Shown here: positions 3,001 to 31,333 of the stretch, in pieces
How positions within the stretch are numbered: position 1 is the first letter of the stretch
How the letters are laid out: each line of letters opens with the position of its first letter
Assembly (NCBI RefSeq): GCF_964204645.1
Contig: NC_134026.1
Coordinates: 6,595,950 to 6,659,949, forward strand
Length of the DNA stretch: 64,000 nt
Direction of reading: 5' to 3'
From: Tubulanus polymorphus
Lineage: Eukaryota; Animalia; Nemertea
Position numbers and translations under genes: made by a program
The notes under the pieces: generated by a model
What the model saw: only the letters and a program-made list of their open reading frames with translations
The model's database searches: none
Told to the model about the DNA's origin: nothing

Positions 3001-6000
3001 TGTAGGACCGTATGGATTTCCTGGATTAAAGGTATTTCATACAGAATTAGAAATAAATTTACCAAAAGGGGAGAGGCTGAATCGTGCAATGACCGAAATT
3101 TTGGTTCGAACCCGTTAAATCTCGTTACTCGAGTTTTCAAATCAGATAATCAAATAGTATCGCAGAGACTCAGTCTTTCATTCTACTGCCATATTTGATG
3201 AACGGCTTTTGATGAAAAGTTGAAGTTATTACATTTTCGTCGGCTATATCTTCAGGGTGAACCTGGACCTGTAGGGCAATTCGGCCCGAGGGGACTAAAG
3301 GTAACCATGCAGTCTCAAATTTTGTCTAAATTTCATTTTTCATTGATATCTGAAACGCGCTTGTATATTTCATTGTTTTTCATTTTAGGGCGATAAAGGA
3401 GATATAGGGCCTGTTGGGCCTGCTGGGTCTGTTGGGCCTGTCGGGCCACCAGGACCAACCATATCTACTGTATGTATAGGTTTTCTATGTATTTTTAAGA
3501 TATCTATGACTTCATAATTACAGACAGTATACGAAATGTAATAATTCATTACAGGAGGGCACTGTGGTTGATGGCCCGAAAGGAGAACCAGGTCTACCGG
3601 GACCAAAGGTACCAACATTTTCAACGTACAAATTAAAATTTGCAGAATTGTTCGCTGTTTGTTTCAATTTTCCAAACATTTTGCTTTCCGCTTTAAACTT
3701 ATTCAACCGGTTAACGATTGCTTTCGAGATAATTTTCTGCGTTAAAATGTATGAATATTGTGTATCTGTAGGGTGGACGCGGGTTCGACGGAGCGCCTGG
3801 TTTACCAGGGATAAAGGTATCATTCAACCACGTATTGTTTATGTTTACTTTTGTGCACTATACGGAAATAAAATCAATTTGTTATTCTGACCATCAAATT
3901 CATAAAGCAAAGGTTTCAAAGGCCCGATAATGATAATTTGTATTTTCCTTATTGTTTAATTCGCGTAATCCTTGATATACAAACATGTAATATAATGCGT
4001 CATAAAAACGATTTTGATATTGAAATACATGCGCGTAGGGCTGTAAAATTAGGCATTGACATCAGAACATCAGGAAATATTCTATTCATTTTGATTTCAG
4101 GGTGAACAAGGAATAAAGGTATTTAACTTTACTATAATTCGAGTCGATGTATTTGTCTGAAAATACAACACGTAGTTTGATTTTGATCAACGCACTGTTT
4201 AGAATATATGATTATATTTTCTGTTAGGGTGATTCTGGTTCTGATGGTCTGGTAGGACCGCGTGGCCATCGCGGTATCAAAGTAAGAAATAGTATATTTT
4301 AATCTGCTTCTTCATATTCATCAGGATCCAAGTCCACAGTTGTCGGATAAGTTTGAGTCTAGGGCTAAATCGTTTAACTCTAGAGTCAATACTTACCGAG
4401 AACTATATGACGTATTGAATGAGTCCACGAATTCAGTAAATTCACGACCTTTTACCGCTCCAGTTGTTGCCCCAGTTGTTGAATGTTAACATCCACGCAA
4501 TATTTGTGGTCGAGATTTTTTCTTAAGTACATGTATATACTTTTTGATAGTAGAAAATGTCGTAATACGTCGTGTGGGGTAATTGATCGTTGATTTAAAA
4601 TATTTTGCAGGGTGAACCCGGGATGCCTGGTCTCGCAAAAATGGACAATAAAACTTTGTCAAATCTGGCGGTAAGTTGAACTAAATATCAAATGGATACA
4701 ATAACCAATGTTTCTCAGTGGTTTAATATTTAATTCATTCTCTTAATTAAAGGAGACTTTGAGTGGAAGAGTAGGAACACGAAACCTAACGGCAATCAAA
4801 GGACAGAAGGTAAATTCGTGTGACATGTTTATTTCAATGAACGAAAGAAAAATGATAGAATTGATGAAATTTTAATAGGAATTTTGTATCGTTCAGGGTG
4901 AGAGAGGACCTGCCGGTTTTCCGGGGGATATCGGACCAAAAGGATCTGCGGTAAGCGAGGGTGGGTGGTACGGGTATCACAACTCTCAGGATTACTCGTA
5001 TAGCGAACAACGTAGACTAAACTGCGGTTTCACCGACTGTAAAAACCAGTCAACAATTTCACGCCAATATCCGGAGTATAAATGGAAATAAAATAAAGAC
5101 TGGTGGTAAAAAAAAACAATTTGTATATCGAGTCTTACCGGGAAATGTGTTTATTTCAGGGTTTGGATGGTGCAAATGGGGTGAAAGGTGACCAGGTACG
5201 TTCTGTACGGTTCGATTATTGATAGAAATACAAAATAGCGCAATAGTCAAAAATATTGAATTTGCTCGTATTTATCAGGGTCAGAAGGGTGAACAAGGAG
5301 AAGTTGGTCTTGAAGGACAACCAGGCCTAGCTGTGAGTTATTCATTAAATCTGTAAATTATCAATTCATTTATCGATATCAAAATGATACAAAAAGGCAG
5401 AAAGATACAGGTAAATAATGTATACAGATGGGCGCAAAGAACATGTATCAAGGAAATTGAAATAATCTACTCAAAGAAATTCGAGGACAAATATGAATAT
5501 AACCAAATACATAGACCATATACGCTTGAACACTATTTTACAATTTTTCAAATTCAATTTTCCAAAAAAAGCCTATTCATTTCATGGGAACATAAAAACA
5601 TAGACACTCAATAATATGGTCAAATGTTATCGTCGTTCATATCATATTTTCACCCAGGAAGTATTTGTGTCCACTCTGCTCTACGATGCTCTGTGACCCT
5701 AAGTTTATACTCAAAACTAAGGTTCTTATAGTGGTATCAAATCTTTAGTCAATGAATTCGAATACGCGTAAAACATCAGTATACAACGGGGTCTTGTAGA
5801 AAACGAAGGCCAGGTGAATTAGAATGGAATTTGATCTGTTTTTCTTTAACTATAGGGGAATCCCGGTCCGAGAGGTTATTCAGGAATAGATGGAATCAAT
5901 GGTCAACAGGTGTGTAATGATCCCTTCTCATCAAATATATACTCGATTTTAAATTCTTAAGATAGCTGTTAAACTTGGGCGGAATTTGAATTTATCTTCA

Positions 6001-9000
6001 GGGACCTCAGGGTATTCCAGGACCTGTCGGGCCGAAAGGAGACCAAGTAAGTAAAAAAAGGAAAATTTACGTTACGCCTTGCTAAGTCTCACAAAATCCA
6101 TTTGTAACTGAACGTTTGTGTTTTTAAGGGGCCGCCAGGACCAAGTGGAGTTGTAAGCGATAATATGGTGAGGGAGCTAATGACTAAATCGGATATAGTC
6201 GTTAAGGTAAATCAGTTAAAACTCAGATTACACACAAAAAAAGTTGAGGAATTCTTACCCGGAGGCTTGAATAATATGCCTGCATGAAATTAACTTATTT
6301 GAACGCAAGAGCTTAAAAACTATACTCTGAACAACTTGCATGTGATTGTTATATTTCTAGGGCCCACCGGGACCGGTTGGACCGGCTGGATCAAGAGGTA
6401 TCGCTGGACCCCGAGGGCCCGAAGGAGCACGTGGGGAGCGAGGACTCACTGGTTTACCAGGACCTGACGGGCGAGACGTATGTATTTTTTTCTTGAATGT
6501 AGAATGAAACTATAAAACCCGATAAAGGTTTAAATGTATTGTTTTTTTATTAGGGTCGCAACGGTGAACCAGGAGATCCAGGTCCGCCAGGATTCCCAGT
6601 AAGTATAATCTATATCCATCTGTATTCAGTAAAACTGGCGTCAACTTCAATTAATATAACATTCAACTATCCTTTAGGGACCAACTGGTCGAAAAGGTCC
6701 GAAAGGAGATCGCGGAATTTATGGTCCGAAGGTCGGTGTAGTTGAGAGAATATCAGTATGAAAAGAAACGACATTATGACACGTCAAACTAACGCTAGCT
6801 CTTATATTTCAGGGTGCCGTTGGATTCCCAGGACGGCCCGGGTTTAGAGGACCCCGCGGATTGCCTGTAAGCAATAAATATTTCGATAGGGCTAAATTTT
6901 GAATAACCCAATCCCTATCATAAACTCCAAGTATGATTTACGGTTTTTAGGGAGCGAAAGGCGATATAGGTGACCCAGGACGGACAGGTCCACCCGGCAT
7001 AGCGGGACCGAAGGTAGGGAGTAAATGATAAAGCTTTTAACACCTTCAAAGCAATGCATTAATCGGCGTTTAACTTTCAGGGTGCGCGTGGATTGATTGG
7101 GCCGCGAGGAAGTCTCGGACCGCGTGGTTTTACCGGTAGAGCTGGGCCACCGGTACGTTCTAATAACCGCATGCATTGATTGTATTTCTCTTGAATAAAT
7201 TACCTGATTGAATGGATATCGAATTGTTTTTTCTTCATCCAGGGCCCACCAGGACCGCCAGGAGAGGCTACGACAAAGGTATAAAAGCAACTACTGAGAA
7301 ATTCCCGTTTTCGAATTAGAAGATTCAATCAGCTATTCAAACTTTAAATCACAGTATCGTAATAATAAAACGTTAAATCCGACAAGATTGCGATTGGACT
7401 AAAAAGTCTATTGAATATAGATAAAGGAGATAAAACATAGATCCCCAGAAGAATTTTAAGACAGAAGATGGGTGGTAGTAGCCACCCGAAATATTTCTAT
7501 TCTCAATAACGTTTTAGTTCAATTACGTTTGTGGGATTTTACGCTGTATTGTGCTGTATTTGTAGGCATTCGAAGGAGGGCCAGTAGAAGACGCGGCTGC
7601 TCATACTGCAGGTGCTCAGGGTGTCTTAACTTTAAATACCAGAAATAACTATTTACGAGGACCAGAAGTACGTTCATTTCATTAAAACATATATCTATAT
7701 CACACAAACTGCATGAGAATAAATACAATTTCACCCATTGAGTATTTTATAAAAGCATGAGTCACTTCCACAAGCACTGGGTGGTCTGGTTTTGAACTTA
7801 ATTGAACTTAATTCAAGTTCATGCATATCATAACCCACAGGATGTTGGTCCAGCTGCATCGTCGAGGTCCATCTCTGTTTCATAGCCAATCTGTAGAACA
7901 TCTCGGAAAAATTTGCAACATTTTGCAGCTGGACTCTAGGTTTAAGGGATTTATCATATATTTTATATATAGTAATCTGATCAACTCTTACAGGGACAGC
8001 GTGGACTCCCAGGAAATCCTGGACAGGTATATTAAATAGAACATGCATGTTAAATGCTTTTACCCCCACACAGTGTTCGTTCCGTCACTATTATTTTTGA
8101 CTGTCCAAACTCGATCCTCGCAAATCTACGGTTCCAGACAGCGTCTGGATTTGGACAGCTTACTTTAATTATTTTCTTAGATAAATCGTTACTCGTCGAT
8201 TGACTTTTTATCTCTGTGTGTTTTTTTATAATATGAAAAATTACCAGGAAATGTTTCATGTTTTTTTCTGCTATGACCCGTTATTTTCTGATCAGTACAA
8301 ATCCCGCTGCATGAATTCAAAATCCTTCTCTTCAATGCACAATACAATATTTGATTCAGAATTTTTATTTTATTTTTGAGATTTTGTTCTTTGCTTTATT
8401 GATACAGGTATATGCAATATTTTCCTTTGTTTTCTTTTTGTGTTGTTTTTTTTAAATTCTTGTATGTGGTCCATGCCTGTTTCAGTTCATATAGGAAAAA
8501 TATTTGTGCTCAGAATCTTAATTCAGTTTTGACTAGTGTATAAATGTTGCAATTTAGATGAACTGCAGCCTAACGTTCAAAACACAGTTAAATAGTTTTC
8601 TTATTGTAGTATTTAAAGATTTAAAGCAAAAAATAATTCTGATTATGTAAATACCAAAAAATTGGTCTAGATATACCCCTATAATCGAAAATTTCTTTGT
8701 CAATTGCAGCCTGGGGCGCGTGGACCTCAAGGAGACACCGGTCCACCCGGAGCACCGGGTAATTCAGGACCACCCGGACCGACTGGTCTACCCGGATCAC
8801 CAGGACCACAGGGACTCGCTGGACAACCAGGAATGCCTGGAATGCCAGGAAGACCGGTAGGTTTATATCATCTGTGTACCATCACCATATATATACAAAC
8901 AACGTCCCTAAACTCTATAGACGCGTTCACACTATGTCTGAACGTTCTAAATTTAGCCCGTTCCTATTTAGAACGCACCAGGCGTTCACACCGACGAAAA

Positions 9001-12000
9001 ACCGTTCTAATTTCGACCGTTCTATTTTATAATGGACTTATCTAGACCGCCAAAAAACCGATGCACGTCCGTTCTAAATTTTGGAATGGACCATTCCTCT
9101 GTGTGTGAATAGAAACTTAGCGTGTCGATCACAGTGTTGCGTTTATAGCTGGACCAGTGATGGTCTGATTTGATGCTGATGACTTGATGCTGTCTTGAAA
9201 AGCATAACACGAGTGAGCGCAAAGCATTGATTTCTTCCATTCCAAATTAGTCCATTCCGTAGCACGGGCTAAATTAAGCAAGCGACAGTGTGGACGCGGT
9301 TTGTGTTTTAGTGTTCAGGTTGCTGATGGAAAAGTGACTGTTTTATATTTACAGGGACGCGATTCATACACTTACAGAACCCAAAATCGTAGAAACTATT
9401 ACTCAAAATTCCCAGACTCTTCCTCAAACGATACTAAGGTTTTATTCGTGTTGTTTTATTGAGGTTTATTGAGTTTTACGTGTCTAACACCCGTGTTTGT
9501 TTATTATTCCTCCACTAGGGAAACACTGTTACGGCTACTAATGATGCGTTGGTTTTCTACAATGCCATGCATGAATTTATAATTGATATCACAATTATTT
9601 TCCTAAACCCAAATTTTTAGTTTTTATCCCGAATTTTACCCCTAACCTTTTTCCTGTACCAAAATTTCAGTTTTTATCCAAAAATTTATGTTCTACAACT
9701 ATCCATTGATTTATTGAATGAGTGTTAAGATTTTTTTCAATGTTTAGCAAATGTTATTTAATTTTAAATTTTCAGTTAAATAATCATAATATTTTGCATG
9801 TTGTTTTAGTATCCAATCATTAAAGTTGTTGTTTAAAATATAAAATTCATTATTATCATATTTTGTCATGCGTTTATTGATTGTCATTTCACAAATTTTC
9901 ACTCGTTGAATATAACTCTTTCTCCGCTGATAATTCTCTGATGAAACGCTCGAGTTTTATTGTGATTTTAGGGCCGATCTCCAAGCGTTGAAGAAATTAG
10001 GAAAATCTGCTACGAAATTCTGAAAGGTAGGCGCGCAAACGTTGCATTCCGATTTGCTGATTAATATGCGACGACGATGAATTCTGATTTAATATGTTTT
10101 ACTATTTTCGTTTCTGTAGAACAAGCAGGGGACATCATTCGGGGACTCCGAGGTCCTAGAGGTCCGGTAGGATACGGCAGACCGGGCCCGCAAGGACCTC
10201 CCGGTGATCCAGGCCAGCCAGGTATACTTACTGGAAGGTACATGTACCTATCACCCACAATTGATCTCACGAAAGCATTTTACTAGAAGCACCCATACCG
10301 AATCTAATTGATTGAATCGAGCAAGCTGAAATATCCTTCCAATGTTAGAAATAGATGATTCAGATAATATCAAAGAGGTTTTGATCGCTATAGAACGAAT
10401 TGTATTTTAGGGGTCATCGGACCGAATGGTTTACAGGGGGAACCAGGAATGATAGGACCTCCCGGACCAACCGGACCGCCCGGAGACAGAGGAGTGCCCG
10501 GTACGTAAATCAGGCACACATTTTTTTCTATAGAATTACCCATCAGAGCTAAGTCTACATGTTTAAATCTATTCTTCAGGACCGCAGGGAGAGAGGGGGT
10601 TTAGAGGACAGCGAGGACGATCAACACTAGGTCCTGTAGGTCCTCCAGGCCTACCGGGTACGTACCAATTCATTCCGTAACCTATCAAATATTCATCTTA
10701 ACAAAACAAACCATTCGAAATTGATGATATATGAATATTTTTTACTGGTAACAGACGACAAAAAGAGGTATCGTGTAAATTCTCTCTGTTTTTGGCTGAT
10801 ATTCGGCTCTATTCAGTTCTCGGTGTTACGCATGTTTTCGTTTGTGACGTTACGATGTCATTTTTTAACGTACATTAACAACTGCGGATAATGCTGTTTA
10901 TCCATTGATTTACAGTTCCGTTCGCGGCGGTAAAACTGATTAGTTCAATTCATTTCATTCACTGAAACCGACATGAAATCAAATAGACGCCAACATCATT
11001 TTTCTAACTCTATTTTCCCATTCGTCGTTTTTTTTCTATTGTTTGTTGATGAAGTCTGCGCCGCGGGTTATTTGTGTTCTCTCCATTCAGTCCTTACGTC
11101 GTCCGTCGCATTTGCATGAATTATTTCGCGTTTGATTTCTTTTTTGTTCTTTTTTTTTGATGATTCTAATTTCTAACCGATAAAAACGGAGCTTAGTTCG
11201 ATTCGGATGACTTCGAGAACTATCTGAACTTGACTTAAAATTTGCCAAACAATTTTTTTAAGAATCCTGGTTTTCACGCGAGCGGTTTCTTTGCAATAGC
11301 TGAAAAAAGCTAAGTGGAAACCGTTCGTGAAAACCAGCCTTTAAAAAGTCAAATCGCTCTCAAGAATCGCTTTTTATTTAGAAATTCGTTTCACTATCAA
11401 AACGAAACTGCGAATGACGTTGCAAATTGCTTGTCAACTTCGTGCAATAGGCGACGATGTTTTACTAGTGATTGAGCATGTATTCAACATCATTGTCTTA
11501 TTGTATTCGACATCAAACTTATTGCCTGGACATAATGAATGAAAAATCACTCCTGAAGATGACTATTGATATACGAATTCGAAACGTTGAATAAATTATT
11601 AGAGCCCAAGGAAACATTTCGGGCTATCTATTTTTCTTTCTGAATATGGGATTTTTCTATATTATCGCCACATCGCTGACTCAGAGTGTTTCATCAGCAG
11701 TTGTCAAAGATTTCCTAATCTAGCTGTGTCAATATCACTATTACTCAACTAAGAATACTCTGATTTTTGCAGGTCCTAGAGGGCGGGCTGGGGTCGGCAT
11801 TCGTGGTGATCCCGGCGACGAAGGCCCGAGAGGTATACCCGGCCCACCCGGTAGCCCAGGAATGCCCGGACCGCAGGGCCCAGCCGGTACGTGTTCAGGG
11901 TGTTATCCGTCTGCTATGAGTGAATTCGGCGCCGCTCATTTGACGCCGATTATACATTCGTTCGGACAAATAAACAACGTTAGAAACAACGAAAACAGTA

Positions 12001-13721
12001 GAAATGATGAACAGAAGCCACCAGCAGCAGCGGCAACAACAACAACGGCAGCAGCAGCAGCGGATAATCCTCCTGATCTAGGACACGTATCCGGTGATTC
12101 CCAGAATGAAGATTCAGACTATCCAGCTTATTCGATCGACGATATCAAAATCATATCAATACCAATTCCAACACCACGAGGAGTCAGTGTTGAGAACCCG
12201 CGTGAGGAGGAGGTTAGTAGCGGAGGAGGTATCGCCAATAATGTCGAAAAGGTGACCATAATTCCGCTTGATAACGAATTAACCTCATCATCAGATACAA
12301 CATACACTGGATACGTCGAGACGAACAGTACAGACATTGATCATGTTTTACAGATCGAAAACTTAGCACCGAAACCATCATCAGACTTAGTCATTAAAAC
12401 TGATCAGTTAGCAATTACAGATAGCGGTATCGAGTCGGATGAGTTATCCGAACCGGTAAAACTTGTGAATAAGCAAACTACAGAAACTAGTGTCGATTCT
12501 AGTAGCGCATTACTAGGAAATGCTGTAGATCCTGGTAAAAGGTTACCAGAAACAAGCGTAGATCCTAGCAGTGCGTTACTAGGAACTGGCGTAGATCCTA
12601 GTAGTGCGTTATTAGGAACTAGTGTAGATCCTGGTAGGAAGTTACCAGAAAGTAACGTAGATCATGACAGTGCTTTACCAAAAACTATTGATGTCCAAGA
12701 GCAGCATTCTGCGGAAACAGAATCATCTAGATATCGCTTCAAAACGACGCCATTACTGAGGCCTACCCCAGCGCCACCTACACCTCATAGCGCACCACCT
12801 GAATCAGTACATACTACACCTGCAATACGAGCAACGACTCTCATCCCACAAACCGGTGAAAACAACATAAATAAACACGAGAAAACTAAAGGTAGTGATT
12901 TCAGTCCAGGGCAAATAATCATATCAGTGAGTTCACGTGACCATCAACCTGATCGCCATCGCGGTAATGAGAGAAACCGAGAATCAAAACAACCTTCAAC
13001 CGAGCGGCCAGTTCCTCTTCCTCAAGAACCACCACGACCAGCGCCGCGTATATCTATACAAACCGATACCAGTCATTCGAAACCAACGCGCCTTAAAAAA
13101 GTTAAATTCGGTATCGAAATCGAAACGTCGGTCGTGAAGAAACGAAAGACAGTTCCTCGACGGAATACTAGAACGAGAAACCATGTTGTTAGTAGCACGA
13201 GACCGTATAGACCTCACCTGCACAAAATGGCTACCGAGATACACCGGAAACACCGACCACGTGGTATAAGCGTGCGCGTGGTAACTCCCAGACGTGGAGA
13301 ATTCAAAAATGATATAGCTGTTGCCGATGCACCAATCAGCGACGACGATGATAGGTTTAAACGCGCAAAAGATTCGTCGATGAAAAAGAGAAATGAAATC
13401 GTCAGAAAACGAAAACTCCGTTTGAAACGAACTAGACCGCGAGCTCGGGCGGATAGAATCAAACGAGTTAGAAATAAAAGATGGCGTCGCGATAGTAACC
13501 TAAACAATCTAATAAACGATAGATTTAATGGTGTTTATAATCATAGATTGCGTCATCATCGGGGAAGATTTGATCGACGTAGTAAAGAATATCATCTTAA
13601 CTCAGAACATAAAAACTTTGATAGTAATCAGCAACCAAGTTCGCAAGTGTCTAGTAGCAATAATCGTGGCAGTGTGACTCATAGAAATGATTCAATGATG
13701 TTAGATTTCGGAGTACGATGA
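1..13721 (+). CDS. FACIT (type IX-like) collagen alpha chain, 5'-partial, many exons
   Basis: Gly-X-Y exons with GT-AG borders, mostly multiples of 9 nt (e.g. 1-43, 2158-2220, 2624-2731, 2810-2881, 2978-3031, 3256-3300, 4101-4118, 6361-6477, last exon 11773-13721). The first exon ends ...RCSELP, like the end of a TSPN/NC4 domain, followed by [11 protein letters not shown]. An NC2-like helix [20 protein letters not shown] sits near 9972-10130 and the last triple helix ends in GTCSGC. Confidence 0.9.
8921..9298. mobile_element. MITE-like element with imperfect terminal inverted repeats, in a collagen intron
   Basis: Left cgcgttcacact...atttagcccgttccta mirrors right tagcacgggctaaatt...agtgtggacgcg. 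Confidence 0.6.
11773..13721 (+). CDS. Terminal collagen exon: end of the last triple helix plus a ~600-aa low-complexity tail
   Basis: Acceptor ttttgcag at 11772. Open frame (ORF 11862-13721) continues Gly-X-Y, then an acidic Ser/Thr/Pro-rich region and an Arg/Lys/His-rich region. Confidence 0.85.
12480..12680 (+). repeat. Coding tandem repeat, 33 bp / 11 aa ([11 protein letters not shown] / [11 protein letters not shown]), about 6 units
   Basis: Repeated gtagatcct(a/g)g..g.g.gttac/t units in the sequence and in the translation. Confidence 0.85.
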
Positions 13722-14781
13722 CCGTTCGAACCATAGCGATTTATTTAATGTATATTGCAAACTGTGATTTGTATTCATGTTTTTGCATTTTTATTTGAAT
13801 TTTCAAAAACGATTTGACGGTTAAACTGCTACAGTAATATCAGTGTTGTGTGTATGTGTGTCTCGTTGGTACAAATTTATACCTCGTTTCTCTTTTTTAT
13901 GAGATGATACCCGCATGTCTCGCGGTTAGAAGAAAAACAAGTAAGTTTTGACAAATGTTGTTTACTGAAAAATCCGTGATCGTTTGCAATGCAGCTCATG
14001 TGGACATTACGTCGCGCCGTCTAGGGGTTGTTCGCGTCATCTTCATCTACATCGCCACCCTCAAGTGGCTATCTACGTCATCCTTTGTCATTTCAAAGAT
14101 TATCAAAATATAATAATCGATAGTTGGATTTTCATGCAATTTAAGTCATTGCATACTACATGTGTACGGGCTATAAGTACATATAACATGTAGATGAACA
14201 TGCGCATGTAACATGCGCCTGTAATGTTTTTACAATGTAATGTTTCTTCTACTCGATTTAGAAGCGCTTTTTGTTCGGTACGATTGGATGTCGATGCGCA
14301 TGCGTGTTATCACGTGGTGTATAAATGTTAATAAAGTTTCGTAAATGAATCAGATTTTCTTGCTGAATTGCCAATCGCTGCTTCAAGTTTTGTAGTATTG
14401 AGCATGCATGACTAAACGTATCAAACGTATACAGTTTCTAGTTTAACGTCCACGGATTGAGGCTTTTGAGAAACGGCAACTGAAGATACGACCAGAAGGG
14501 TACACATCCCCTGAAATGTTCATTGAATTTGTCCTCTAAAAAATTACATACTCGATGGTACATGTAACATGAATCAAAAAGCATTCCTAAGGAACTAAAA
14601 GGATCACTAATTACCCACAATATGGTCTTTATGGATTGCGTTCAAGGATCCAACCGGTTTTGAAAATCGAATGTTCACGAGATATTCCCCGCATTAAGCA
14701 ACGAGGAAGTTTTCATAAAGTAAAAACATTTATATTTTATATAAAAAGAACAAGTTCATAATGTTGATTCATATCTTTTTA

Positions 14782-15886
14782 TCAAGCATGCACGGAATAT
14801 TCGAGCCGGTGATTTTTAAAACAGTGCTGCAAACTCAAATACAATACCAGAATTAAAATAATTATTTGCATCACCAAATTGGCGATGGTGAACCCGTTGA
14901 GGTTTTCACACTTTCCATCAGGGGGACAGCGGTATTTCCCTGGTTTTTTAGTCATGTTTCCTTCGTATTTCGTGGTCTACAAAAATAACCCAAATACAAT
15001 ATTACACACTAGAGCGGCCATCGTGGTTCACGCGAGATTTTGATCGCAAGAGATTTTGGTCAAAAACTCAGTCATGACCATTTTGACCAAGTAATGATAT
15101 AATGGCATATAATCCAACATGGCCGTCAGTGACGTCATATCCAGTCTTCGTTCTGATTGGTCAATACTCACCTCGTTCATGATTATTTGAAATATCTGAC
15201 GAATGGCATCATCAGACAGCGGGCCTTCGTTCTTCTTAACGATCTTATCGAGGACGATTTTCTCTCTAGCCGGGTCGTAAATCGGACGTTTGTTTTTTAT
15301 CTTCCATTTTGCGACATGACCGGCTACGATTGTTCTTTGATTAACGGCTTCAAGAATTACATCGGTGAAAACATCTATATCTTGCCGATAGCAGTCCAGG
15401 TTTTTGTCATCTATTGAGCACGCTCCTGTGTTCCTGAGTCAGAAATAGATGGGTAGACTTAACTAAAATCTGTGGAACTGGGTCCCGAGTTCGCAAGAAT
15501 TTCACAAAATAACGAAGGCCAGATTTACGGACTGGTAGCATCTTAAACCAGAGGTGGAAATACGTCAAACTCTTTTGAATTGCGGGGCGTTTAACGGACG
15601 ACTTAGAAAGTTTCCTTAAAGTTGTAGTTCATATTTCCGTGTTATCATGACTATGTATGAGACTTTGTCGTTCTGCGAGAACAATGACAGAGCGAGCAAG
15701 TAACAGTACGCAATCAGTAGGTGTTCAATTCATAGTCAATCAAATAGTTAACCCCATTTAAAACGAGTCTCATGCTCTATAAATCCTGCCCCGCCGGGAT
15801 TCGGTTTTTACTTACTTGCATTCGCTTGCAGATATAGTTTCACATAATACAGAAATCAGAAGAATTGATACAACCTCGACGAGCAT
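14782..15886 (-). CDS. aroQ: Signal-peptide-bearing, membrane-anchored AroQ-class (CM_2) chorismate mutase-like protein, 3 exons, 175 aa
   Basis: Exons 15886-15816, 15433-15172 and 14976-14782, all GT-AG and phase-compatible (2, then 0). Translation: MLVEVVSILLISVLCETISASECKNTGACSIDDKNLDCYRQDIDVFTDVILEAVNQRTIVAGHVAKWKIKNKRPIYDPAREKIVLDKIVKKNEGPLSDDAIRQIFQIIMNETTKYEGNMTKKPGKYRCPPDGKCENLNGFTIANLVMQIIILILVLYLSLQHCFKNHRLEYSVHA*. The spacing R-x16-R-x10-K-x8-D-x2-RE matches E. coli PheA chorismate mutase R11/R28/K39/D48/R51/E52 without gaps. Confidence 0.9.
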
Positions 15887-16592
15887 TATGGCTGCGTGTA
15901 GCCCCGCTATATCACAGTACAGTATAGAACAGTACCAGTACTGCTGTTAATCGATTTTAACGATACGAAAATAACTCCGGAATTTCCACTGACATGGTTT
16001 GATAACCACTACGTATACATTCAACAATTATAACTGACCTTTCAAATAGACTTATTCCTTTGACCGTAATGGATACACGAATAAACACAGTTAATAATCG
16101 GTGAAAATGCCACGTTAGAATTTTATTAGATTTTTTCGATTATTTCAGTGCAAAAAAATTAAAAAGGAATTTAATTTCAATAAAAATGAAAATTCCAATT
16201 CAGTTGATCCATTTTTTCTAAAGTTCTAAAATCGAGGTACGAGAATAGGTTTAAAAATTAGGAGATAAACATGTTTATTGCTATTTACCGAGACGAGCGA
16301 AAAACCAGTTTTAAAAGAGACGACGAAAAATATATCGGGCGGCATTCGACAATAGAAAGCCATATACGTATAAATTACAGTTAAAAATCAGGTGGAGCTC
16401 GCATATAATGAGTTGGTCTAATTGAGAATCAGTAAACCGTGTCGTTTGATATAATACTCTACATTCAGTACTGTTGTTAACAGGACGTTTACGAGTCTAT
16501 AACGTTATTAACGGTCGGAGACATTCAATGCCAATCTAACCTCTTCAAATTCAAGTTGAGTGTTTCGCAAACAGAATCCGACAAACAGAACG
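15887..16592. promoter_or_regulatory. Probable bidirectional promoter region between the chorismate mutase-like gene (-) and the next gene (+)
   Basis: Head-to-head ATGs about 700 bp apart (15886 on -, 16593 on +). No individual element was verified. Confidence 0.4.
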
Positions 16593-19500
16593 ATGGCTTT
16601 GGACTTCAGAGCTAAAACCTACCGTCCGTTAAATCGGTATGATACAAGATTAAAGTAAGTGTCTCCGATCAGAAAGTAATACATGTTTCTAGATTTTCGT
16701 AGTGAAGATATGCTTATTGGCGACATGTTACTGTGTGCGAATAGAAAAAATACATGTCGCGAAAAGGATTAGTTAATAGTTAGTCTAAAAACGATGGATC
16801 GAAATCAAATTATATGTATCAAATTATTGAATGATCCCAATGATTCGAAATTTCATTGACTTCTTCACGATTTTAGACAATTCAAGTAAAACTTGTTGAG
16901 CTTTGTAGTTAAGGTACCCAGTTCAACAACAGTGTTGATCGAACATGGCAGACGAACAGAATTGAACTTTAAAAGTCAAACTTAACAACCGAGAACACTG
17001 TAGAACTGAGTTCTGAAAATTAAATGATATAGTGGCGCAGAGCCATGACTTGAGACTATCATAGTTCTAGACCCAATCTTACGATTAAGACCAGTCTAAG
17101 CTCATTTTGGTTCCATCATAACCAATCTAACAACTTAAGACTAGTCTTGGTTCTATAGTCAATCAAACGACTTCAGACACGATCTTAAGATTTAACACCA
17201 CTTTTGGCCTTATGTCACGACTGCGCAACTGTACTCAGGGGCCTTAACATTCCATGCAGTATATATTTCCGGTATATATTAGCCTTGTACGAAACGGACC
17301 TACGATTACGTATTATCGAATCCGGACTTTGTGCGACGTCTAGATCCGTACAATCAACCTTACCTCACGATTACGCATTATCGAATCCGGACTTTGTGCG
17401 ACGTCTAGATCCGTACAATCAACCTTACAAACAAATACATGTTTATAGTTATCGTCAGCTATCATTCATATCGAAATCATTCATCATTTCATGAAAATGA
17501 TTAATTTCCTATAACATAAATCAACGAAATATTAATCTTACAGTAGCTATGAATGTACAAGTAGAATAGCCCGTATACACTCAGAGACATGGTACATGAT
17601 TACTATGATGAGAAAAATCCGACCATGCACCCATTTAAAAGATTAAAACCAGAATCTGTTATTCAAAAACGAACATTAAAAATGGAGCACAGAGAGAGAG
17701 TTCGAAACGTCGAGTCCTCCGTTTTTTATTTGAAATTTTTGATAAACGAATTCTGCTTCTTATCTTTTAAAAGTCGGTTTTGAACGAATTTCATTTCAGT
17801 ACTTCATACGGTAAGATGACGACTTGGTACCGAGCCCGAAATCAACTGAGCGATCCTGACAGAGATATGATCAGAAACAACATCGTACTTCCCACTATTC
17901 CAAACAGCCCTATGAAACCAGAACTGAATCATATTCCGAATCCGCTGAAAGTGAAAGTATCCGGCGGAAATTTCTACATCCCGCGACCGTTTACATTACC
18001 GGATCAGGGTGCCCGTCCCCCTTATGCCGCTAGTGACTGCGATCTAACCGCTAGTCTCTATAAAACATACGAGGCTAATTTCCAACCAGGAAAAGTAAGT
18101 CTGAAAAAAAATATTATCAAAATGTTATTATCGAGAAAATTAATTCTTACTCTTTATAATAATAAATTTTTGGAATTAGAAAACAAGACCCTATTAGGCA
18201 GGTTGCAGTTTGCACAGTTCCGAGTTATGATTTAACTCATCGAAAATGAACTAATTCTAATTCGAGTTCAGAGTTAACTCTAACTCACAACTGTGGAACT
18301 GGGTCCTGAGTTCAGAGTTAACTCTAACTCACAACTACATGGAACTGGATCGAGCCATAGCTCAGAATTAACTCTAACTCACAACTATGGAACGCCAGAA
18401 TCGATTGAATTGAGCCAATTAATTCTACGTCACAGATTGGTTATGTTATTATTTTTAGAAATCGGATGCAGTTCACTTGCAGTACTACAGATCCGGGGGT
18501 TACGATGATTTTCATAAGGCTTTTCTTACTCATAAACTCAACAGACAAAAACCATCGGAAATGGTCGCGCCGTACGGACCCGCTCAGTAAGATCTATATA
18601 TAGTAACGGTTTTGAAATATGGAAAACATCAAGCAAATTGAGTGACATACATGCGCGCATGGTTTAAGCGGTATAGATAGTATATTGTTGTGTCCCTAGG
18701 GGCCGGTTCAAAAGTCGAGACTTAAGTCCCAAAAAGTCCCTTAAATCTTGAGACTGGTCTTGAATTGTTAGATTGGTTATAGAACTCAGATGTTCTCGAA
18801 TTGGTTTTAAACCTAAGACGGAACCAGCCCCCAGGATTGTTCTGGGGGTCAAATTCTTCTTTAAAAAGGGCCGAATCCACAAGGCTTTTCCTAAGGGCAT
18901 CCCGGGGCTAAATCTTAGAACGGGTGGTATGATTTAAAAGGTAAAGAAATATATTTCATTATTTCAAAAATGCCACCTATGGCTGAAATGTTGACTTAAA
19001 TGTTGACTCGCGTTAGGCGAGGGGGTGTTTGTTCATCGTCGGGGGTTGACTGTATGTCTGAAGAATAGTTCACATACACCCCCATAAATAACAAATTGAA
19101 TATTTCCATCTCTCGAATTTCATACTCAAAACAATAGTCGACATCATCTCGTGTTTATTCCCGAATAATTTATTGACGACAAATTCACGTTCGTTCTAAA
19201 CGTCCGATTACGCAGGAAATAGTTGTATAAATCAAATTTCAGGACGCGAAATGGCAATGTCGGCAGTAACTGGAGACATATCAAATCAATCAACGAAGCT
19301 CGTGGAATACGTAACGCATTTATTGATGGTAAATGCAAAAAGAAAAGAGTTTGTAATTGATAAACACCTGATGAAGCTACTATACACCAGTATATAGCGA
19401 AATCTCGTGCGTCTAATAAACAAGTTAACCTAGTACTTAAGTACTACTATAATACCTTAAGTACTATTTGCTCGTTTCGTTGTAATGATATAGATATCAA

Positions 19501-20754
19501 CCTGAAGCCTGCAACTACAAGCACTTCTTTACCATTTAACAGTCTGAAAAATGCCTAATGTCTGGTGTCCGTAGTTCATTTTCAATCATAAATGTCTCGC
19601 GCGAAGTTCTGAACACATGTGAAGTTTAGATGATTAAATATTAAAAGAATGGTGATAATGTAATCGAATGTCTGGGGAGCAGGTCCGGGCTGATGGGAAG
19701 CAGGGTCCAGGTGGAGGGTTCTTGGCTAACCATTAATGTTTAACTTGATTATTCAAATTTCGCTTTAAGGTCAAGTAAGTCTCGATGATCTGTACAGAAT
19801 GGACAAAGAAGAAAGTAAACTATCACCACAGATCAATAAGCGGCCTCCAATGACTAAAAGAGTCATAAAATCGCGTAAGTTGAAACTGTCGGCCCCAATA
19901 ATGGTTCCCATTAGTTAATGACAGTAACTGTAAAGTGTTAATCTAAAACTTTCACCTGACAATCAACGATATTACGGTGAACAGTGTGTGATCTCAATGA
20001 CCAGCGACTTCCTCAATAATGACACATACAGTCGCTTTAGATTAAAATAGGACACATACTCAGTGTGACTCCCATTGGCTATCAATGACTTTTATCCCTG
20101 CTGGATGGTGTGCAATTTTCCCAAATATTACTAAATGGAGGCTGGGGATTTACAATAAATCGAATACAATTTGGTTTATGATAATGTACCTGCTGATGTC
20201 TCCGTTCCACTCAAGATTTTAATCATCCCGTGAGACCAATAGCGAATTGATAGAGATTTTAGTCATAGGGCTTTTGTATCCCGCCATAAAAGCGATAACA
20301 ATGTGAATCTGATTCCCTTGAGTGTGGACAGTTTATTGATACGAACGCCTCAAGATCATATATCCCCCTCATGAGGTGGGGTGATATACCCTCGTCAGGT
20401 GAGGGGATATCCCTACATCGGATGAGGTGATATCCCTTCCTCAGGTGAGGTGATATCCCCTCATCAGGTGAGGTAGTCTCACCTCGTCAAATGAGGAGAT
20501 ATTTCCCTCATTAGGTGAGGTGATCCCCTCATCGGATGAGGGGATATCCACTTATGTGAATCAAATGTGAACATAAATCTAATCCTTTGATTCACACGTA
20601 TTTCAACTGCTGATTTGAAAATAGAATTTAATATGTTGATCGTCGATGATGATGATGAGAGGCTTCGATAGTTTCTGTATGCTGTTTTTCAGTGGATAAC
20701 GATCTTGATGCGATTCAAGCCATAGAAAAACGTAACTGGTATCTGGTTCGCTGA
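16593..20754 (+). CDS. Uncharacterised multi-exon protein (Pro/Tyr/Arg-rich; possibly ciliary or sperm-associated)
   Basis: Phase-compatible GT-AG exons at about 16593-16654, 17544-17591, 17800-18094, 18459-18586, 19243-19328, 19770-19874 and 20693-20754, reading MALDFRAKTYRPLNRYDTRLNSYECTSRIARIHSETCTSYGKMTTWY...EKRNWYLVR*. No recognisable domain. Confidence 0.65.
17298..17428 (+). repeat. Near-perfect tandem duplication, about 62 bp x2
   Basis: acgattacg(t/c)attatcgaatccggactttgtgcgacgtctagatccgtacaatcaaccttac occurs twice. Confidence 0.9.
18200..18420. repeat. Dispersed MITE-like family with end motif (a)actgtggaactgggtcc and internal gagttaactctaactcacaact units
   Basis: The same end motif or its reverse complement occurs near 4325, 15470, 16915, 17000, 18290 and 21603. 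Confidence 0.6.
18699..18831. mobile_element. Small MITE (ggggccggttc...gaaccagcccc)
   Basis: Imperfect terminal inverted repeats enclosing ttaagac/gtcttaa-type internal motifs. Confidence 0.5.
20358..20550. repeat. Minisatellite, about 23-bp partly palindromic unit (atcccctcatcaggtgaggtgat), about 8 copies
   Basis: Directly visible diverged tandem units. Confidence 0.85.
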
Positions 20755-23936: not shown

Positions 23937-25043
23937 TTACATCGACGATATTTTATAGATATCTATAACCGACCCGTTCTCCGGCGTATTACTAGTACTG
24001 GGTGTTTTAGCTACAGACCGTTTCGAGACGATCGAAGCATTTTCCTGATCCGAATAGTCACGGCTGTTCATTCCCGTCGAATCTCGCGTGAACAAACGCT
24101 TCAAATCGCGACGAAAACTCTTCCCGCCCCCGATACAATAGAGATAGAAATTAACGGCGCAATTCGCGTACCATAACTTGTGACAAATGGCGTAGACGAA
24201 CTGACTTATCACCTCGGAATCGATGTTTTTGTTAAGTGGGTAAACAGTCTCTACGAATCTATAAACGCGTATCGGAACATTCAGCGCAATATACGCGGCT
24301 GAGACTAACAACAGCATTTTCGTCAATTGGTTTTTTTCCGATTTTTCGCGAATGTCGTTTTTAACCGATACAGTTCGAGGGCCGGTGATTTTTTTCATTT
24401 CGGCTTTCGTACGCGAATAGATCGATAGGATCAGCGCGTTTAACACGGTCAAAGCGATTATCGGCAACAAACCGTGAAACGCCAGATCGAATATACTCAT
24501 GAATTTATCGAACACGGGACTGTAACCGGTGCGGCGGCAAACGGTACGATTAGTTTTCGGCGATAAAGCGACGGTCATAGTAAACAACGGATAAATATTG
24601 AGCCCTATGACTATTGTACCGATCAGAGCGATGGCGAGAGCCGCCCTTTTTGTTGTACAGTATCTGGCGACTTTAAAAGTCCATCGGACGGCCACGTATC
24701 GATCCGCTGTCATACCGACAACCAACCACGACGAATAGTTTATAAAAGCGTACATTATAAAAGTAAAACCGCGACAAACCTGATCCGTCAGCCAGTTCTT
24801 TAGGAAATTGAAATACATCCAGTAACTGGAAAGCGGGAATATCAGTATGATCGAATCTACGACCGCTAGGGCGGCCATATAGACGGTCGTCGATGAAGTG
24901 CGCTTGCCTCGTAAGCGACGGATCATAATCGCGAAACTTAAAACGTTGCCGATCAATCCGGAAATCACGACGAACGGCGGAATGTACAGGTCAATTATTC
25001 CGATTCCGTTTTTTAGTGCGCGATACGTGTTCTCATTCATCAT
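23937..25043 (-). CDS. Intronless class A (rhodopsin-like) GPCR, FMRFamide/sex-peptide receptor-like
   Basis: Seven hydrophobic segments; GN in TM1, LAxxD in TM2, DRY in TM3, NFYLY in TM7. First in-frame ATG is at 25043; the ORF track starts at a GTG at 25106. Confidence 0.9.
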   Translation of the reverse strand: MMNENTYRALKNGIGIIDLYIPPFVVISGLIGNVLSFAIMIRRLRGKRTSSTTVYMAALAVVDSIILIFPLSSYWMYFNFLKNWLTDQVCRGFTFIMYAFINYSSWLVVGMTADRYVAVRWTFKVARYCTTKRAALAIALIGTIVIGLNIYPLFTMTVALSPKTNRTVCRRTGYSPVFDKFMSIFDLAFHGLLPIIALTVLNALILSIYSRTKAEMKKITGPRTVSVKNDIREKSEKNQLTKMLLLVSAAYIALNVPIRVYRFVETVYPLNKNIDSEVISQFVYAICHKLWYANCAVNFYLYCIGGGKSFRRDLKRLFTRDSTGMNSRDYSDQENASIVSKRSVAKTPSTSNTPENGSVIDIYKISSM

Positions 25044-27477
25044 ACAATCATCGAGTTCAGATATACCTATAAAACACTCGTATGTCCCAAGCTCTACGGT
25101 TCCCACTATATTGATATCTCAATACGTCGATCCAGACTTTTAAGAAGAAGTTGATATTTCTAAAAGCGAAAACTAACAACAAGTTCTATCGACCATGTCC
25201 TAAACTGAAACACTTGAAATACTGAAGAAATTCGCTGAACGACGCAGCAAATTGTTATTCTTTAGTTCGATACGTTACCGCATTTACTCACGATCAGATC
25301 CTCAACAGTTCGCGTTCAATTCAGCCACGAGTTGATTCCTTTTGTATACGTGCGTTCTTCTAACAAATTTAGATAGATAAATCCAATCACGTCTAATTCG
25401 ATATTAATTCCCATTTTGTAGTCTGTATGAGGGGTATAAATTATATATATAAATCACGACAGGTCCGAGGACAATATCTGTACATCAGGAATCATCAATC
25501 GAAGCAGTGTCACTTTCCACCAGCCCCGATACATGAACGCGTCAAATTTAACGACGACGGATTTCGTTTTTTTCGTCGTCAGTTTTTTTTCTTATTAACG
25601 ATGAAACAAGAAACCGAAACATCAATGAATTTGCTGATGGTAATCGCACACTCTCCACGCGTCGGCCGCCGTAAGCAGGATGGGTCCGATATCTAAAGGA
25701 TCAGATGACCATTTAGCGACGACTCAAGTCCGGTTCAATAAATACAATAATCATTAACTGGTCGATTGGCTAAAAACAAATCTAACGATTTTCTACAAAT
25801 CAGAAAGGTCAGTTACATTGTTTCAGTTGTACGTAGAATGTTTGAATTTCTGTCCACTGATAAAATATATTCCATTGTCCATGTCTTTTGTTGTTTTAAA
25901 AACGAAAAACTAAGATATTTTAGCAGATGTTAGTGAGATACGCTATATTTATCTGCCCTGTCCAGGGCTGCTCATCGCACTAACTGATCTCATCTCATCT
26001 CATATTTTCCAATTAAGATCTTGTATCGTTTGTCGTTTCGAGTATAGAGCAGTCACGAAGGTTTGAACAGTTTATGGAGCTTTCGCTCTTGTGTTAAAGT
26101 GTTATCCGTTAATGAACACGTTACTGGACGATGACAACAGTAGTTCCGATCACGAGAACTGGTAGTTAAAGGAAATGGCACGACTTGCCGCATTAGTTTT
26201 GAGTTATTCGACAGGTTTAGATGTCTGCTGCTGCTGCCGGTAACGACTATACGCCATCTCTGAGTGGGTGATTTACGCATGGACTCGATGACGTCGCGCA
26301 ATAAGCGGACATCCACAATTTAAAATCTAACGGCTAAATTGCTTCGACGATTTTGATTGGTTTGTATCTCGTGTGTAGTTTATCTTTAAGAGAATTGGTC
26401 TTGTATATATGCCATTAGAAATGAAAACACATGGTCTATCGCGCTGACCTTCGTTAGATATTACACCATCTTGTTAACACCAAGCATTATCTCCAAAATG
26501 TTAATATTCTATAAGGGGACCTATACTAGCTATGGCTAACGTTCACCTCGCACAGTTTTGGTACATCAGCAGACCTCGTGGTTCGTGGTGAACCCCATCG
26601 TCCTCAATGTGAAAAAAATACAGCACAACTCACATTGATTGATTGATAAAACGATTCATCGCGTATAATAATAAATCTTGTTGTTTTTTTTAACCCAGTG
26701 TGTTTCGTGCGCAAATTTTTAAAAGAAATGTATTCTATGTTGTGGATAAATCACACCATTAGATGTAAATGATGGATTGGTTTGGGATCGCAGTAAATCA
26801 TATTTTACTCGCTGCACGGAATGGCGACAGCTTTATCGGCTTCACCTATATCTGTCGAAAAATCATTTTCAATGATTATGAAAATAAGTTTGATAAGAGA
26901 TTTATGTTGAAATGTGTACTGTGTAACAATTCGCACCTTGACCATCCTCGCTTGCCAGGGTTTGGTTGCCGCCCGCCGAAGCACATGCCAACATAAACCC
27001 TGGTCGCAAACCCTTCATTGGTCTATTACGCCGCCCAAAATTTCTTGGGCGGACAGGTTGCCGCTCAGCGCCCACCAGTCTATATATCTAGCCAATCGAT
27101 GATGTATCTGCGCTTCTTGAATTACCCGGAACAAGTTTTGAATTCTGACAAATTGATTTCAAAGTAAAATGAACGTTTCCTCACCTCCATCACGAACCGA
27201 TACGACGAAATGCAACCCGACCTTGCTACATAAGAACAGAAACTGAATTACACTGTACAAATATCTGTTGACAGTCAATGTAAATGCGACATCAAACTAA
27301 TTCAATTCCTCAACAATCAATTGGATTCTAATAAATTTCTTAGAATTCTGAAATCAGGAAATAATTTATTCATCTTGTTTACTTATTGGTTATAATTAAT
27401 CAATCAAATGAGTTTAAATGAAATGATCAATAGATACGCGTGTAAGTTGTATGGAGTTAATCGAACTTGAAATCAAT

Positions 27478-28438
27478 GGTTTTGACTGAATTTCTACGGC
27501 GGATTTTCATACACAAATATATTCACGAATTTCCGGTCCCAGTAAAACATATATGTAAAAATTTACCACAAAGTTACAAACATGAAACTGAGTGAATATA
27601 GTGAAGAGAAATTCTCTCTGTTCTGCTGAGATTGGCAAGTATACGGTAACAGTTGTTGGAAGTGTGGATATTGCAAATGCGAGAGAAACTGTTACAAGCA
27701 TTATTGCTGTACGCTTTGATTTTGTAGTTTTCTGATCAGACGAAACCATTTTTGAGCCTCTGAATAACTGAATTATCATAATAGAATTTGATATGATAAT
27801 GGAAGTTAACGGTAGAGAGTAAATGTGGATGATTATAATGGTGAACGATGTTATTTGGTCAGCTAATTCGTAGTAACATCCGAAAAAAAATGATCAGAAA
27901 AATGCAACGATAAAGTATGAAGAAGATTTATGACCAGTACATTTACTGCAGTAATTATCAATATAGCAAATCTGGCGAATCTCGGTGTACATATCAAACG
28001 AGATGTGAACGGGAAGAGCACAACTGCCGCACGTTCTAGAGATATTGCTACTATAAACCACGAACTATTACAGGACGCAAGTATCATTACAAATTCATAA
28101 ATTTTACAACTGATCAGTGAATTCATCATGAATATAGGATCATCTTTAACGTGCATGAGAAAAACATTGTAAAACAGGCATCAGAGTTAGACTAATGCAG
28201 TAAATAGTATCACAGACTGATAAAACGATAAGATATTTAGCGTAAGATGCGTATACTGCGGAATCTACGACATCATTATCAGGAATGTAGCTGAATTTCC
28301 GAAGGCTCCAAACAAATACAAGATAGGCAGAATGGCCAATGAAAGCGCGTGGTAAATTCCAGGCTTGTTTGATACGGATATTAGAACGATGTAACCGCTG
28401 TAAGTTCGACCAATCGGAATCTGGGTTAGTAAATTCAT
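27478..28438 (-). pseudogene. Frameshifted paralogue of the adjacent 316-aa GPCRs
   Basis: Starts MNLLTQIPIGRTY at 28438. Homologous pieces are spread over different frames (ORFs 28146-28478, 27863-28156, 27507-27779), with a premature stop at 27507. Confidence 0.85.
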
Positions 28439-29184
28439 GTTGCACTGGATACACGAAGCATTGAGAAATGAATCTCATGCGAATGAAAAATCAAAATAGA
28501 TATTGATTTATTTCTGGCGATTAGATTTATTTGTTCTAGTTGAAATCGTTTTTACATACATGAGGTTAATTTATTTGGAAAATCAATTCTTCGAAACAAC
28601 ACAAAACCTAAATTGTGTGAAATGCTTTATGTGTCAGATATAAGACAACTAAATCACAATGAATTCCTAACTGCAGGCAAGATAATCACACGTGGACTGC
28701 AGCGCAATGATCAACCGTCTGATGAACCAGTGTTCAAGCCCGATACTTGTGCCGGATCATTTTGATACTGTTTTTGATTATTTCGATATGATTAAAAAGA
28801 ACGGCAATTTTTCTAATACTCTATCTGGAAAACCTATATTTTGTTTTCTGCAAACCTTCAATAGAATAAAGCAATTAAATGAATTTAGTTTAAAAAGTTA
28901 AATTTGAAACAAATGACAAATTTATCCTTTACCTCTTTGTATTTGTGTATGTTGTGTAGAAAAATAAGCAAATAAAAATAAACAGATTCAACGACCTGTG
29001 GATGAGTTGAATTCATGATTCGCGATAATTAACTGTTCAAGGTGTGGACTGAATGTATCAATAGACTGACGAAAATTAAAATCCACACACTCAATGATAA
29101 TGGAAGCCAAAGATTTATTGTTTGCAACAAGCTAAAGATCAATTCTCAGAAATCTGGGTCAGTGAGATCACTTGAACTTAATGG

Positions 29185-30135: not shown

Positions 30136-31333
30136 GATTCCATAGGGGGAGCCAGTTAACTTACTGTCTGAGAGTGTCTACTGACTATCTGAGAGTGCGA
30201 TTGTCGTAATGAGAGTGGCTGTCTGGGTGTCTGAGAATCCACTGACGCTGTACATTGACTGACAGTGTCTCTTCGCTTATTGGAAAATTGATTCAATGTT
30301 GAAGAAATCATGCGAAAGATTATTTGTATCAAATTGAAAAATCAATTTTCAGATTTATGAAGTTTCACTTTCGCTTGAAATGCAACTAAATTATAAATAT
30401 ATACAATCCAAACAATACTTCATTGTAAATGGTGAAGCATTTTACATAAGATGACATCCGACTAGTATTGAAAATATCTACCAATTCTAAGGGGGGAGGT
30501 TCTGTTCAACATCATCCAAACGCAATATTACACTGACATGCAGCCAGGAATTATCGAGGGCAGTTCTTTAACCTACAAACAAAAAACAGATTAAGCAAAA
30601 CTACAGATCTCACGGATCTAACCCTCGATTTAAACGCAACGTTAACAAAAACACGACATGTGCTGAGTTAGTATGTTAATTTGTCCGGTTAGTGTGGTGA
30701 CCAACGAGATGTAGTACTAGCTGGTGAACAGTCAGTCGCAATCACCGCCATCATGACTACCATCCCTATTTGCACAATCACCGCGATCCCCATCCTCGTG
30801 ACTATCAATTCCATCACCACCATCTCCACCTTCACCACTTCACATGTTGAACCAGTCGTCCAGTCAACCAGTCGCTCGGTCATCCAGCCACCCGGTCATC
30901 GAGTCATCCAGTCTAGGTCACAATATAGTTCCTTATTCGGCAACAAGGATACACATGCACAAATAGCCAGGAGTTCTCAAGGGCAGTTCGTTATTCCAGA
31001 AATAGACATATTTTTCCATTTCTGATTAAAAAGACACAAAATCTTGACCAAAACCTAGATTCGAATCGAATCGGGAATATCCGGGGTGCAAGCCACGTGC
31101 GCTAACCACTACTCCACTGAGCTTTAGTTTGTCAGGTAGTCACCACTTTACAGCCTTGTGATCATATAATTCTTTGATAGGTTTCTAAAGAGGTTTCTTC
31201 GGAACATCACATAAAAAGTTATTTGTAAATGTGAGTTGGATAGAATGACTTATTATATTTATTCATTTATTTATTCTCCGTAACACATCAAATCTGGTTA
31301 AAGTTCCGTAAGGAAATCGCTTGGAATTAATGC

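Follow-up and report, generated by a model that had tools for sequence, protein, structure and literature searches.

We describe a chorismate mutase-like gene of the ribbon worm Tubulanus polymorphus, which lies on the minus strand at 14782..15886 of a 64,000-nucleotide stretch of the genome (assembly GCF_964204645.1, contig NC_134026.1, positions 6,595,950 to 6,659,949; this whole stretch is referred to as the window and its own positions are used throughout). The gene is real, integrated in the host chromosome, intron-bearing and spliced. Animals have no shikimate pathway, and a domesticated transfer is the simplest origin of the gene; the acquisition itself is likely old. With moderate confidence we favour the reading that an old bacterial acquisition supplies the worm with an AroQ-alpha dimer, exposed at the cell surface or in a lumen, that would convert microbial chorismate to prephenate.

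Gene structure, domain and topology

The coding sequence consists of three minus-strand exons bounded by GT donors and AG acceptors, which join to 528 nt encoding 175 amino acids and a stop codon. Exon 1 (15816..15886, 71 nt) contains the start codon, a signal peptide predicted from sequence and hydropathy at about residues 1-20, and the first conserved cysteine, C23. Exon 2 (15172..15433, 262 nt) encodes the bulk of the AroQ/CM_2 domain, including R40, R57, K68, D77, R80, E81, Cys29, Cys38 and N110, and exon 3 (14782..14976, 195 nt) encodes the end of helix 3 (T112, E116), a linker with Cys128 and Cys134, a hydrophobic anchor, a 15-residue tail and the stop. Both introns are of the GT-AG type; intron 1 (15434..15815, 382 nt) is in phase 2, and intron 2 (14977..15171, 195 nt) is in phase 0 and interrupts the N110-x-T112 sequon.

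Both introns are spliced out in one contig of sequencing run X5 (study P2), which extends to 15908, i.e., 22 nt upstream of the ATG, and intron 2 is spliced out in one contig of run X4 (study P1). The two runs carry no RNA label on record; the collagen gene nearby likewise has its GT-AG introns spliced out in their contigs. Run X6 yielded no contig at the gene, which does not prove absence. A contig of 15,995 nt from run X1 spans 8000-17114 unbroken, through the collagen gene, the chorismate mutase-like gene and the next promoter, with both introns retained; X1 is possibly the assembly's own sample, so its independence is incomplete. The three-exon structure and the length of 175 amino acids had been proposed in a first-pass annotation made from the letters alone, which named a lack of spliced transcripts and a misassembled locus as ways in which the proposal could fail. 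The exon joins and the intron-skipping contigs bear the structure out, with both junctions crossed in X5 and the second in X4, and the continuity of the X1 contig argues against a misassembly. The base composition is host-like, with a G+C content of 0.41 overall and 0.46 at third codon positions (GC3), compared to GC3 of 0.33-0.53 in neighbouring host genes. Three non-reference coding differences occur among the runs, all of them amino-acid changes (L85I, E135D, K165R) that are conservative and lie outside the pocket.

The translated product is identical, letter for letter, to XP_074643096.1, the "uncharacterized protein LOC141900212" of T. polymorphus on a 31.9-Mb contig. Consequently the gene is annotated yet undescribed, and the first-pass description of it as hidden does not hold for the NCBI annotation. 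As a separate observation, a contig of run X2 follows exon 2 to its border at 15172 and then continues into at least 255 unlike letters that are not found in the window; this loose end may stem from a closely related paralogue, from an allele with an insertion or from a different splicing of the gene.

The assignment to the AroQ/CM_2 fold, also made in the first-pass annotation, agrees with the profile search. The whole protein matches Pfam CM_2 (PF01817) with 67.3 bits against a cut-off of 27, covering positions 1-79 of the 80 in the profile, and exon 2 by itself scores 64.4 bits (E 1e-17). The match is a single stretch of 78 residues, and all 7 of the 7 aligned family members introduced below match CM_2. 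Alignment places R40, R57, K68, D77, R80 and E81 at the positions of E. coli PheA R11, R28, K39, D48, R51 and E52, the offset being 29 throughout, so that the identical spacing claimed earlier is confirmed; the pocket residue list and the role of R11 across the chains are those described in passages of PMC5526877. The places of S84 and Q88 are taken by T112 and E116, both common variants, glutamate being found at the Q88 place in 85 of 162 other aligned rows and, according to passages of PMC7762937, in the efficient secreted Mycobacterium tuberculosis and yeast enzymes. The idea that this glutamate tunes the enzyme to acid mucus was set aside; we found no support for either half of it and do not use it as evidence.

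Both the NCBIfam models and the solved structures that match the protein best represent bacterial domains of the AroQ-alpha type, from AroA(G) and PheA, and the nearest solved relatives are bacterial chorismate mutase (CM) domains of the AroA(G) type, in keeping with the bacterial affinity suggested earlier. The AroQ-gamma model TIGR01806 scores 40.2 bits against a cut-off of 74.15, which is lower than the alpha-type models, and the protein does not have the six-helix protomer of AroQ-gamma. In searches of solved structures, the yeast and plant AroQ-beta enzymes and PchB were not matched by sequence. The highest identity of the domain to any row outside the family is 40%. Structure neighbours in the Atlas are CM_2 clusters that are 97-100% bacterial, and the Atlas feature searches gave no usable match.

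The hydrophobic N-terminus and C-terminal helix of the first-pass annotation are recovered as stretches at residues 1-19 and 142-160, the latter (14830..14886, minus strand) having a 19-residue Kyte-Doolittle mean of 2.54; both the signal peptide and the transmembrane calls are hydropathy calls only. By the same measure P0002, P0004, P0005 and P0162 have a hydrophobic N-terminus, and a C-terminal hydrophobic stretch like residues 142-160 is also present in P0004, P0005 and P0126. The N-terminal stretch would direct entry into the endoplasmic reticulum and the C-terminal stretch would serve as an anchor, while disulfides among the five conserved cysteines of the ectodomain and a glycan at N110 are predicted from the residue pattern.

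A two-copy model of residues 21-138 scored 0.83, compared to 0.00 for the best control, with R40 in the interface; the runs share at least 83% of contacts and have a predicted local distance difference test score (pLDDT) of at least 73. In calibration the mark used for dimers was passed, among solved structures from microbes, by 20 of 30 homodimers and 1 of 23 single chains, and among those from eukaryotes by 17 of 29 homodimers and none of 30 single chains. Since similar AroQ dimers have already been solved, the pass may reflect memory and is taken as a likeness only. On this model the protein may form an intertwined AroQ-alpha dimer, each pocket being completed by R40 of the partner chain. 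Models of single chains were of low quality (pLDDT 53 and 48), and Foldseek ranked CM domains at the top with none at E <= 0.001.

Family members and signs of selection

The search for relatives covered 1.84 billion representative sequences and gave 992 matches at E <= 0.001, of which the best 150 were listed. Four proteins stand out among these at 86-109 bits, and the remainder reach at most 61 bits. Two of these four are XP_064644599.1 of the ribbon worm Lineus longissimus and a second T. polymorphus paralogue, XP_074648200.1, on a different contig of 27.4 Mb; these relatives sit on two chromosome-scale contigs other than that of the window, one in each species. Both share the build of the window protein, i.e., a hydrophobic N-terminus, five ectodomain cysteines, a CM domain, a hydrophobic C-terminal helix and a short tail. 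Tubulanus and Lineus belong to the classes Palaeonemertea and Pilidiophora, whose split is the deepest of Nemertea.

Further members are P0006, which, judging from its translation, resembles exon 2 left unspliced, its borders unchanged; P0126, which comprises domain, linker, anchor and tail; and P0003, P0152 and P0162, tandem two-domain proteins that end in a hydrophobic stretch resembling a glycosylphosphatidylinositol (GPI) signal. The GPI-type C-terminus is a pattern reading and should be regarded as putative. P0003 and P0152 are near-identical save for different C-terminal hydrophobic tails, which may reflect alternative splicing or two close species.

In a tree of 45 rows all 7 of the 7 first domains of the family fall into one clade with support of 100/97, apart from bacterial-type AroQ. 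The window protein is the first branch within this clade, the other six members grouping at 98/89. Among these six, the second Tubulanus paralogue and the Lineus protein form a pair at 92/80, which suggests that a duplication preceded the split of the two classes. This tree was built without P0152 and the degenerate second domains and with P0006 cut at the exon end, and its bootstrap was not fully settled; a larger tree of 161 rows, with 12 near-duplicates dropped, was computed as a quick tree only.

Two traits of secreted proteins, which the bacterial-type rows lack, set the family apart. All 10 of 10 family domains have a cysteine at E. coli position 9, where cysteine does not rank among the six most frequent residues in the other rows. 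The catalytic-type family domains have an N-x-T sequon at positions 82-84, which only 3 of 163 other rows share, the family member P0126 being one of the three; the comparison rows for both counts include near-duplicates. Constraint on the pocket shows in the range 30-88, where six members agree at five of six pocket positions, compared to agreement at 16 of 59 positions in the range as a whole (hypergeometric p 0.004, uncorrected for kinship).

The strongest hint comes from the tandem proteins. Their first domain has lost R11 (replaced by S, S and K) and keeps R28, K39, D48, R51, T84 and E88, while the second domain keeps R11 and has lost R28, K39, R51 and Q88. Helix 1 is equally conserved in the two domains (27/36 in each), and the rest of domain 2 drifts (10/24 and 9/25, compared to 19/24 and 15/25 in domain 1). 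Because R11 acts in trans, the two halves sum to exactly one pocket. The tandem proteins thus appear to retain one complete composite active site, which we regard as the family's strongest hint of selection on the pocket. Folding gave no confirmation of the tandem pseudo-dimer arrangement, the models being poor; a wide structure search with the tandem model gave no Z of at least 8, and the single-chain yeast and maize CMs appeared amid many unrelated helical rows.

Origin, role and alternatives

In the reading we favour, a bacterial gene would have been acquired before the Tubulanus and Lineus lineages parted. Its product would be a glycosylated type I membrane dimer with two pockets facing the cell exterior or a lumen, and this membrane-anchored dimer would convert microbial chorismate to prephenate. 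The least certain step is the purpose, for which our preferred guess is salvage at the surface of the gut or of the phagolysosome. Prephenate decays to phenylpyruvate in acid, and animal aminotransferases turn phenylpyruvate into phenylalanine; one enzyme could yield an essential amino acid and also deplete the chorismate of nearby microbes. The purposes suggested in the first-pass annotation, a diversion of siderophore, folate or quinone precursors or the support of a symbiont, are likewise conjectural. As to origin, the clusters outside the family that carry organism names and the neighbours in the Atlas are bacterial, which makes a bacterial source the simplest reading rather than a demonstrated one. 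The domesticated bacterial transfer proposed in the first-pass annotation therefore stands in part: integration, introns, splicing and the simplest origin agree with it, while the phylogeny gives no supported donor or sister group.

Several observations weigh against this reading. The place of E52 is occupied by A or V in every other family member (valine in four catalytic-type domains of relatives, alanine in two), compared to E in 160 of 162 other rows. All NCBIfam chorismate mutase models score below their own cut-offs, the best reaching 56 bits against 106. Regulatory CM domains, the closest relatives of known structure, are minimally active despite having the same polar residues. With 94 alignment columns, the placement of the family's donor or sister group lacks support, and of the 23 non-family clusters looked up, two have organism names, both bacterial, six carry only a CM-type function name and the other 15 have neither. 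The three coding variants, all amino-acid changes, are too few for a selection test, and we know of no extracellular source of chorismate for T. polymorphus. Even in bacteria the role of exported CMs is described as disputed in passages of PMC10520331.

The regulatory domains and the E52 position also bear on function. As reported in passages of PMC5526877, Bacillus and Listeria have regulatory CM domains that combine the same polar residues with minimal activity, so that pocket residues alone are no proof of catalysis. The loss of E52 in all relatives suggests that the family's ligand may not be chorismate, and a binding role or another substrate is possible. There is accordingly a modest chance that origin and topology are as described above and that the pocket binds or converts a different dicarboxylate or aromatic acid, so that the protein would bind or sense metabolites of microbes or would make salicylate in the manner of isochorismate pyruvate lyase, above all in the members without E52. 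Valine at the E52 place marks the lyase PchB, and glutamate there correlates with mutase activity (passages of PMC12329711); the minimally active regulatory domains bind chlorogenic acid and citrate (PMC5526877, in part); and invariant family-specific residues of the W38, T85 and H34 type lie near the pocket. However, the window protein keeps E52 (as E81) together with the complete mutase set, and the secreted M. tuberculosis enzyme has valine at this place and yet is an efficient mutase (kcat/Km 3e5) with trace lyase activity, again according to passages of PMC12329711. In addition, the predicted cytoplasmic tail of 15 residues is without an evident signalling domain.

We consider it unlikely that the family is older and wider than the nemerteans, in which case an early capture by spiralians, animals or another eukaryote would have been patchily kept and the gene would be an inherited one. 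Five members (P0003, P0152, P0162, P0006 and P0126) carry no nemertean label, and P0126, called on a 218-kb contig, continues across the place of intron 2 into the linker and anchor. P0126 and the tandem domains are only 35-46% identical to the nemertean domains, and the breadth of the family was judged from the best 150 of 992 matches. On the other side, all three members with a host taxon on record are nemertean, and neither the best 150 of 992 matches nor the matches of the word-index searches include a member recorded under a mollusc, annelid, brachiopod or other non-nemertean animal; the word-index protein searches were weak, finding the window protein alone or seven proteins by profile and missing P0004 and P0005, and with them the Lineus protein. 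The lack of any sequence match to yeast or plant AroQ-beta enzymes among the solved structures argues in the same direction. Searches for a locus of the family gene in metagenome contigs and prokaryote genomes, and a search of viral contigs with P0126, found nothing.

We found no support for contamination, a misassembled locus or a recent insertion in decay, with the reservation that X1 may be the assembly's source sample. The spliced contigs and the homologue in Lineus effectively refute this reading, and it is further contradicted by the removal of two spliceosomal introns in contigs from two studies, the unbroken DNA contig through the three loci, GC and GC3 within the range of neighbouring host genes, and the homologues on two further contigs of chromosome scale, which come from two species.

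A broader version of the favoured reading, which we put forward only tentatively, is that an ancient family of ribbon worms, perhaps of marine eukaryotes more widely, comprises transmembrane homodimers and GPI-type single-chain tandems that act as cell-surface ectoenzymes of the shikimate pathway, the tandems having re-invented the one-site pseudo-dimer of AroQ-beta and AroQ-gamma, and that these proteins intercept bacterial chorismate or isochorismate. If so, the paralogue that carries E52 would serve phenylalanine salvage, and the paralogues without it would serve salicylate-type chemistry or sensing.

Neighbouring genes, known systems and biological meaning

The chorismate mutase-like gene is arranged tail to tail with the collagen gene, the transcript contig of the latter ending near 14316. 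On its other side it lies head to head with a spliced gene of the plus strand, the contig of which begins at 16288. The latter gene (16288-19800) has its ATG at 17816 and its contig start about 380 nt from the end of the chorismate mutase-like transcript, and a shared promoter of the two is possible; the exon tested had no Pfam match. The collagen-repeat gene (2500-14316, plus strand) has many exons, of which the last (11771-13718) is long, of low complexity and non-collagen, and between 10657 and 11771 the run contigs contain 11 additional letters, a hint of a micro-exon. A cluster of single-exon rhodopsin-family receptors occupies 23940-32287 on the minus strand, three of them with 7tm_1 matches, and a further copy at about 27510-28490 is apparently split over frames. 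Two tandem similar genes at 33393-36326 (plus strand) belong to no confident Pfam family, and each has a C-terminal coiled-coil-like stretch. A retroelement with reverse transcriptase and RNase H domains lies at 50600-54630 on the minus strand, and its layout may be DIRS-like. Short very high-copy repeats, on which thousands of run contigs stack, are found in introns of the neighbouring gene at 17085-17230, 18264-18400 and about 19550-19630, and a 23-nt tandem array is located at 20363-20549.

The known AroQ-alpha proteins used for comparison are EcCM (PheA 1-109, PDB 1ECM), Bacillus AroA(G) 5GMU, Thermus 2D8D, Listeria 3NVT and Geobacillus 5J6F. Like these, the window protein has a single three-helix CM_2 domain with a charged pocket at the same spacing and a predicted intertwined homodimer. 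Unlike it, they are cytoplasmic, are fused to pathway enzymes and are without signal peptide, disulfides, glycan or anchor. Exported CMs are described in passages of PMC10520331 as the AroQ-gamma subclass, which includes the secreted M. tuberculosis enzyme and those of plant-parasitic nematodes and fungi. With them the window protein would share a signal peptide, a non-cytoplasmic site and a disulfide, all of them predicted, and like the M. tuberculosis enzyme it has T in place of S84 and E in place of Q88 (PMC10520331 and PMC7762937, both in part). However, AroQ-gamma proteins are soluble and have a six-helix protomer of rearranged topology, whereas the window protein is of the three-helix alpha type with a predicted membrane anchor; the tandem relatives would reach a single-site, six-helix-like arrangement independently. 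PchB, which has the AroQ fold, carries valine at the E52 place, as do four catalytic-type domains of the relatives (two others have alanine), whereas the window protein has glutamate; at the D48 place PchB has alanine (passages of PMC12329711) and the family keeps aspartate.

Among animals, hemipterans and nematodes parasitic on plants are reported to have chorismate mutases, as stated in passages of PMC4828791, PMC4943190 and PMC4607527, and those of nematodes are horizontal acquisitions according to the first of these. The nematode hosts of AroQ-gamma enzymes are plant parasites, whereas the host of the window gene is a marine worm. The sap-feeding whitefly, mealybug and psyllid offer a parallel in that a bacterial CM gene has been domesticated in an animal genome (PMC4943190 and PMC4607527, both in part), but the hemipteran CM is tied to plant feeding and obligate endosymbionts, and passages of PMC4607527 list the whitefly donor as Enterobacteriales; hemipteran CM sequences were not among the comparison rows for the tree. 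A literature search, which covered listings and main texts from few subscription journals, while genome-wide lists of horizontal transfers in supplements may name these genes, found no publication on a nemertean or a membrane-anchored alpha-type chorismate mutase, and the main text of PMC13390645 does not contain the word "chorismate". The fold and the mode of acquisition are known, and the architecture and the host group are new.

The animals whose chorismate mutases have been described are plant parasites and sap feeders with an obvious source of substrate, and the ribbon worm differs from them in this respect. The gene offers a small, clean system for asking what exported chorismate mutases do, and the family provides a natural series (E compared to A or V at one pocket position; homodimer compared to single-site tandem) for the study of mutase and lyase specificity. 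If the broader version of the favoured reading is true, it would reveal an unrecognised channel of animal-microbe chemistry in a non-herbivorous animal. That a version predicted to be anchored has been kept and duplicated across ribbon-worm classes implies that chorismate or a similar molecule matters at the surface or in the gut of a marine invertebrate.
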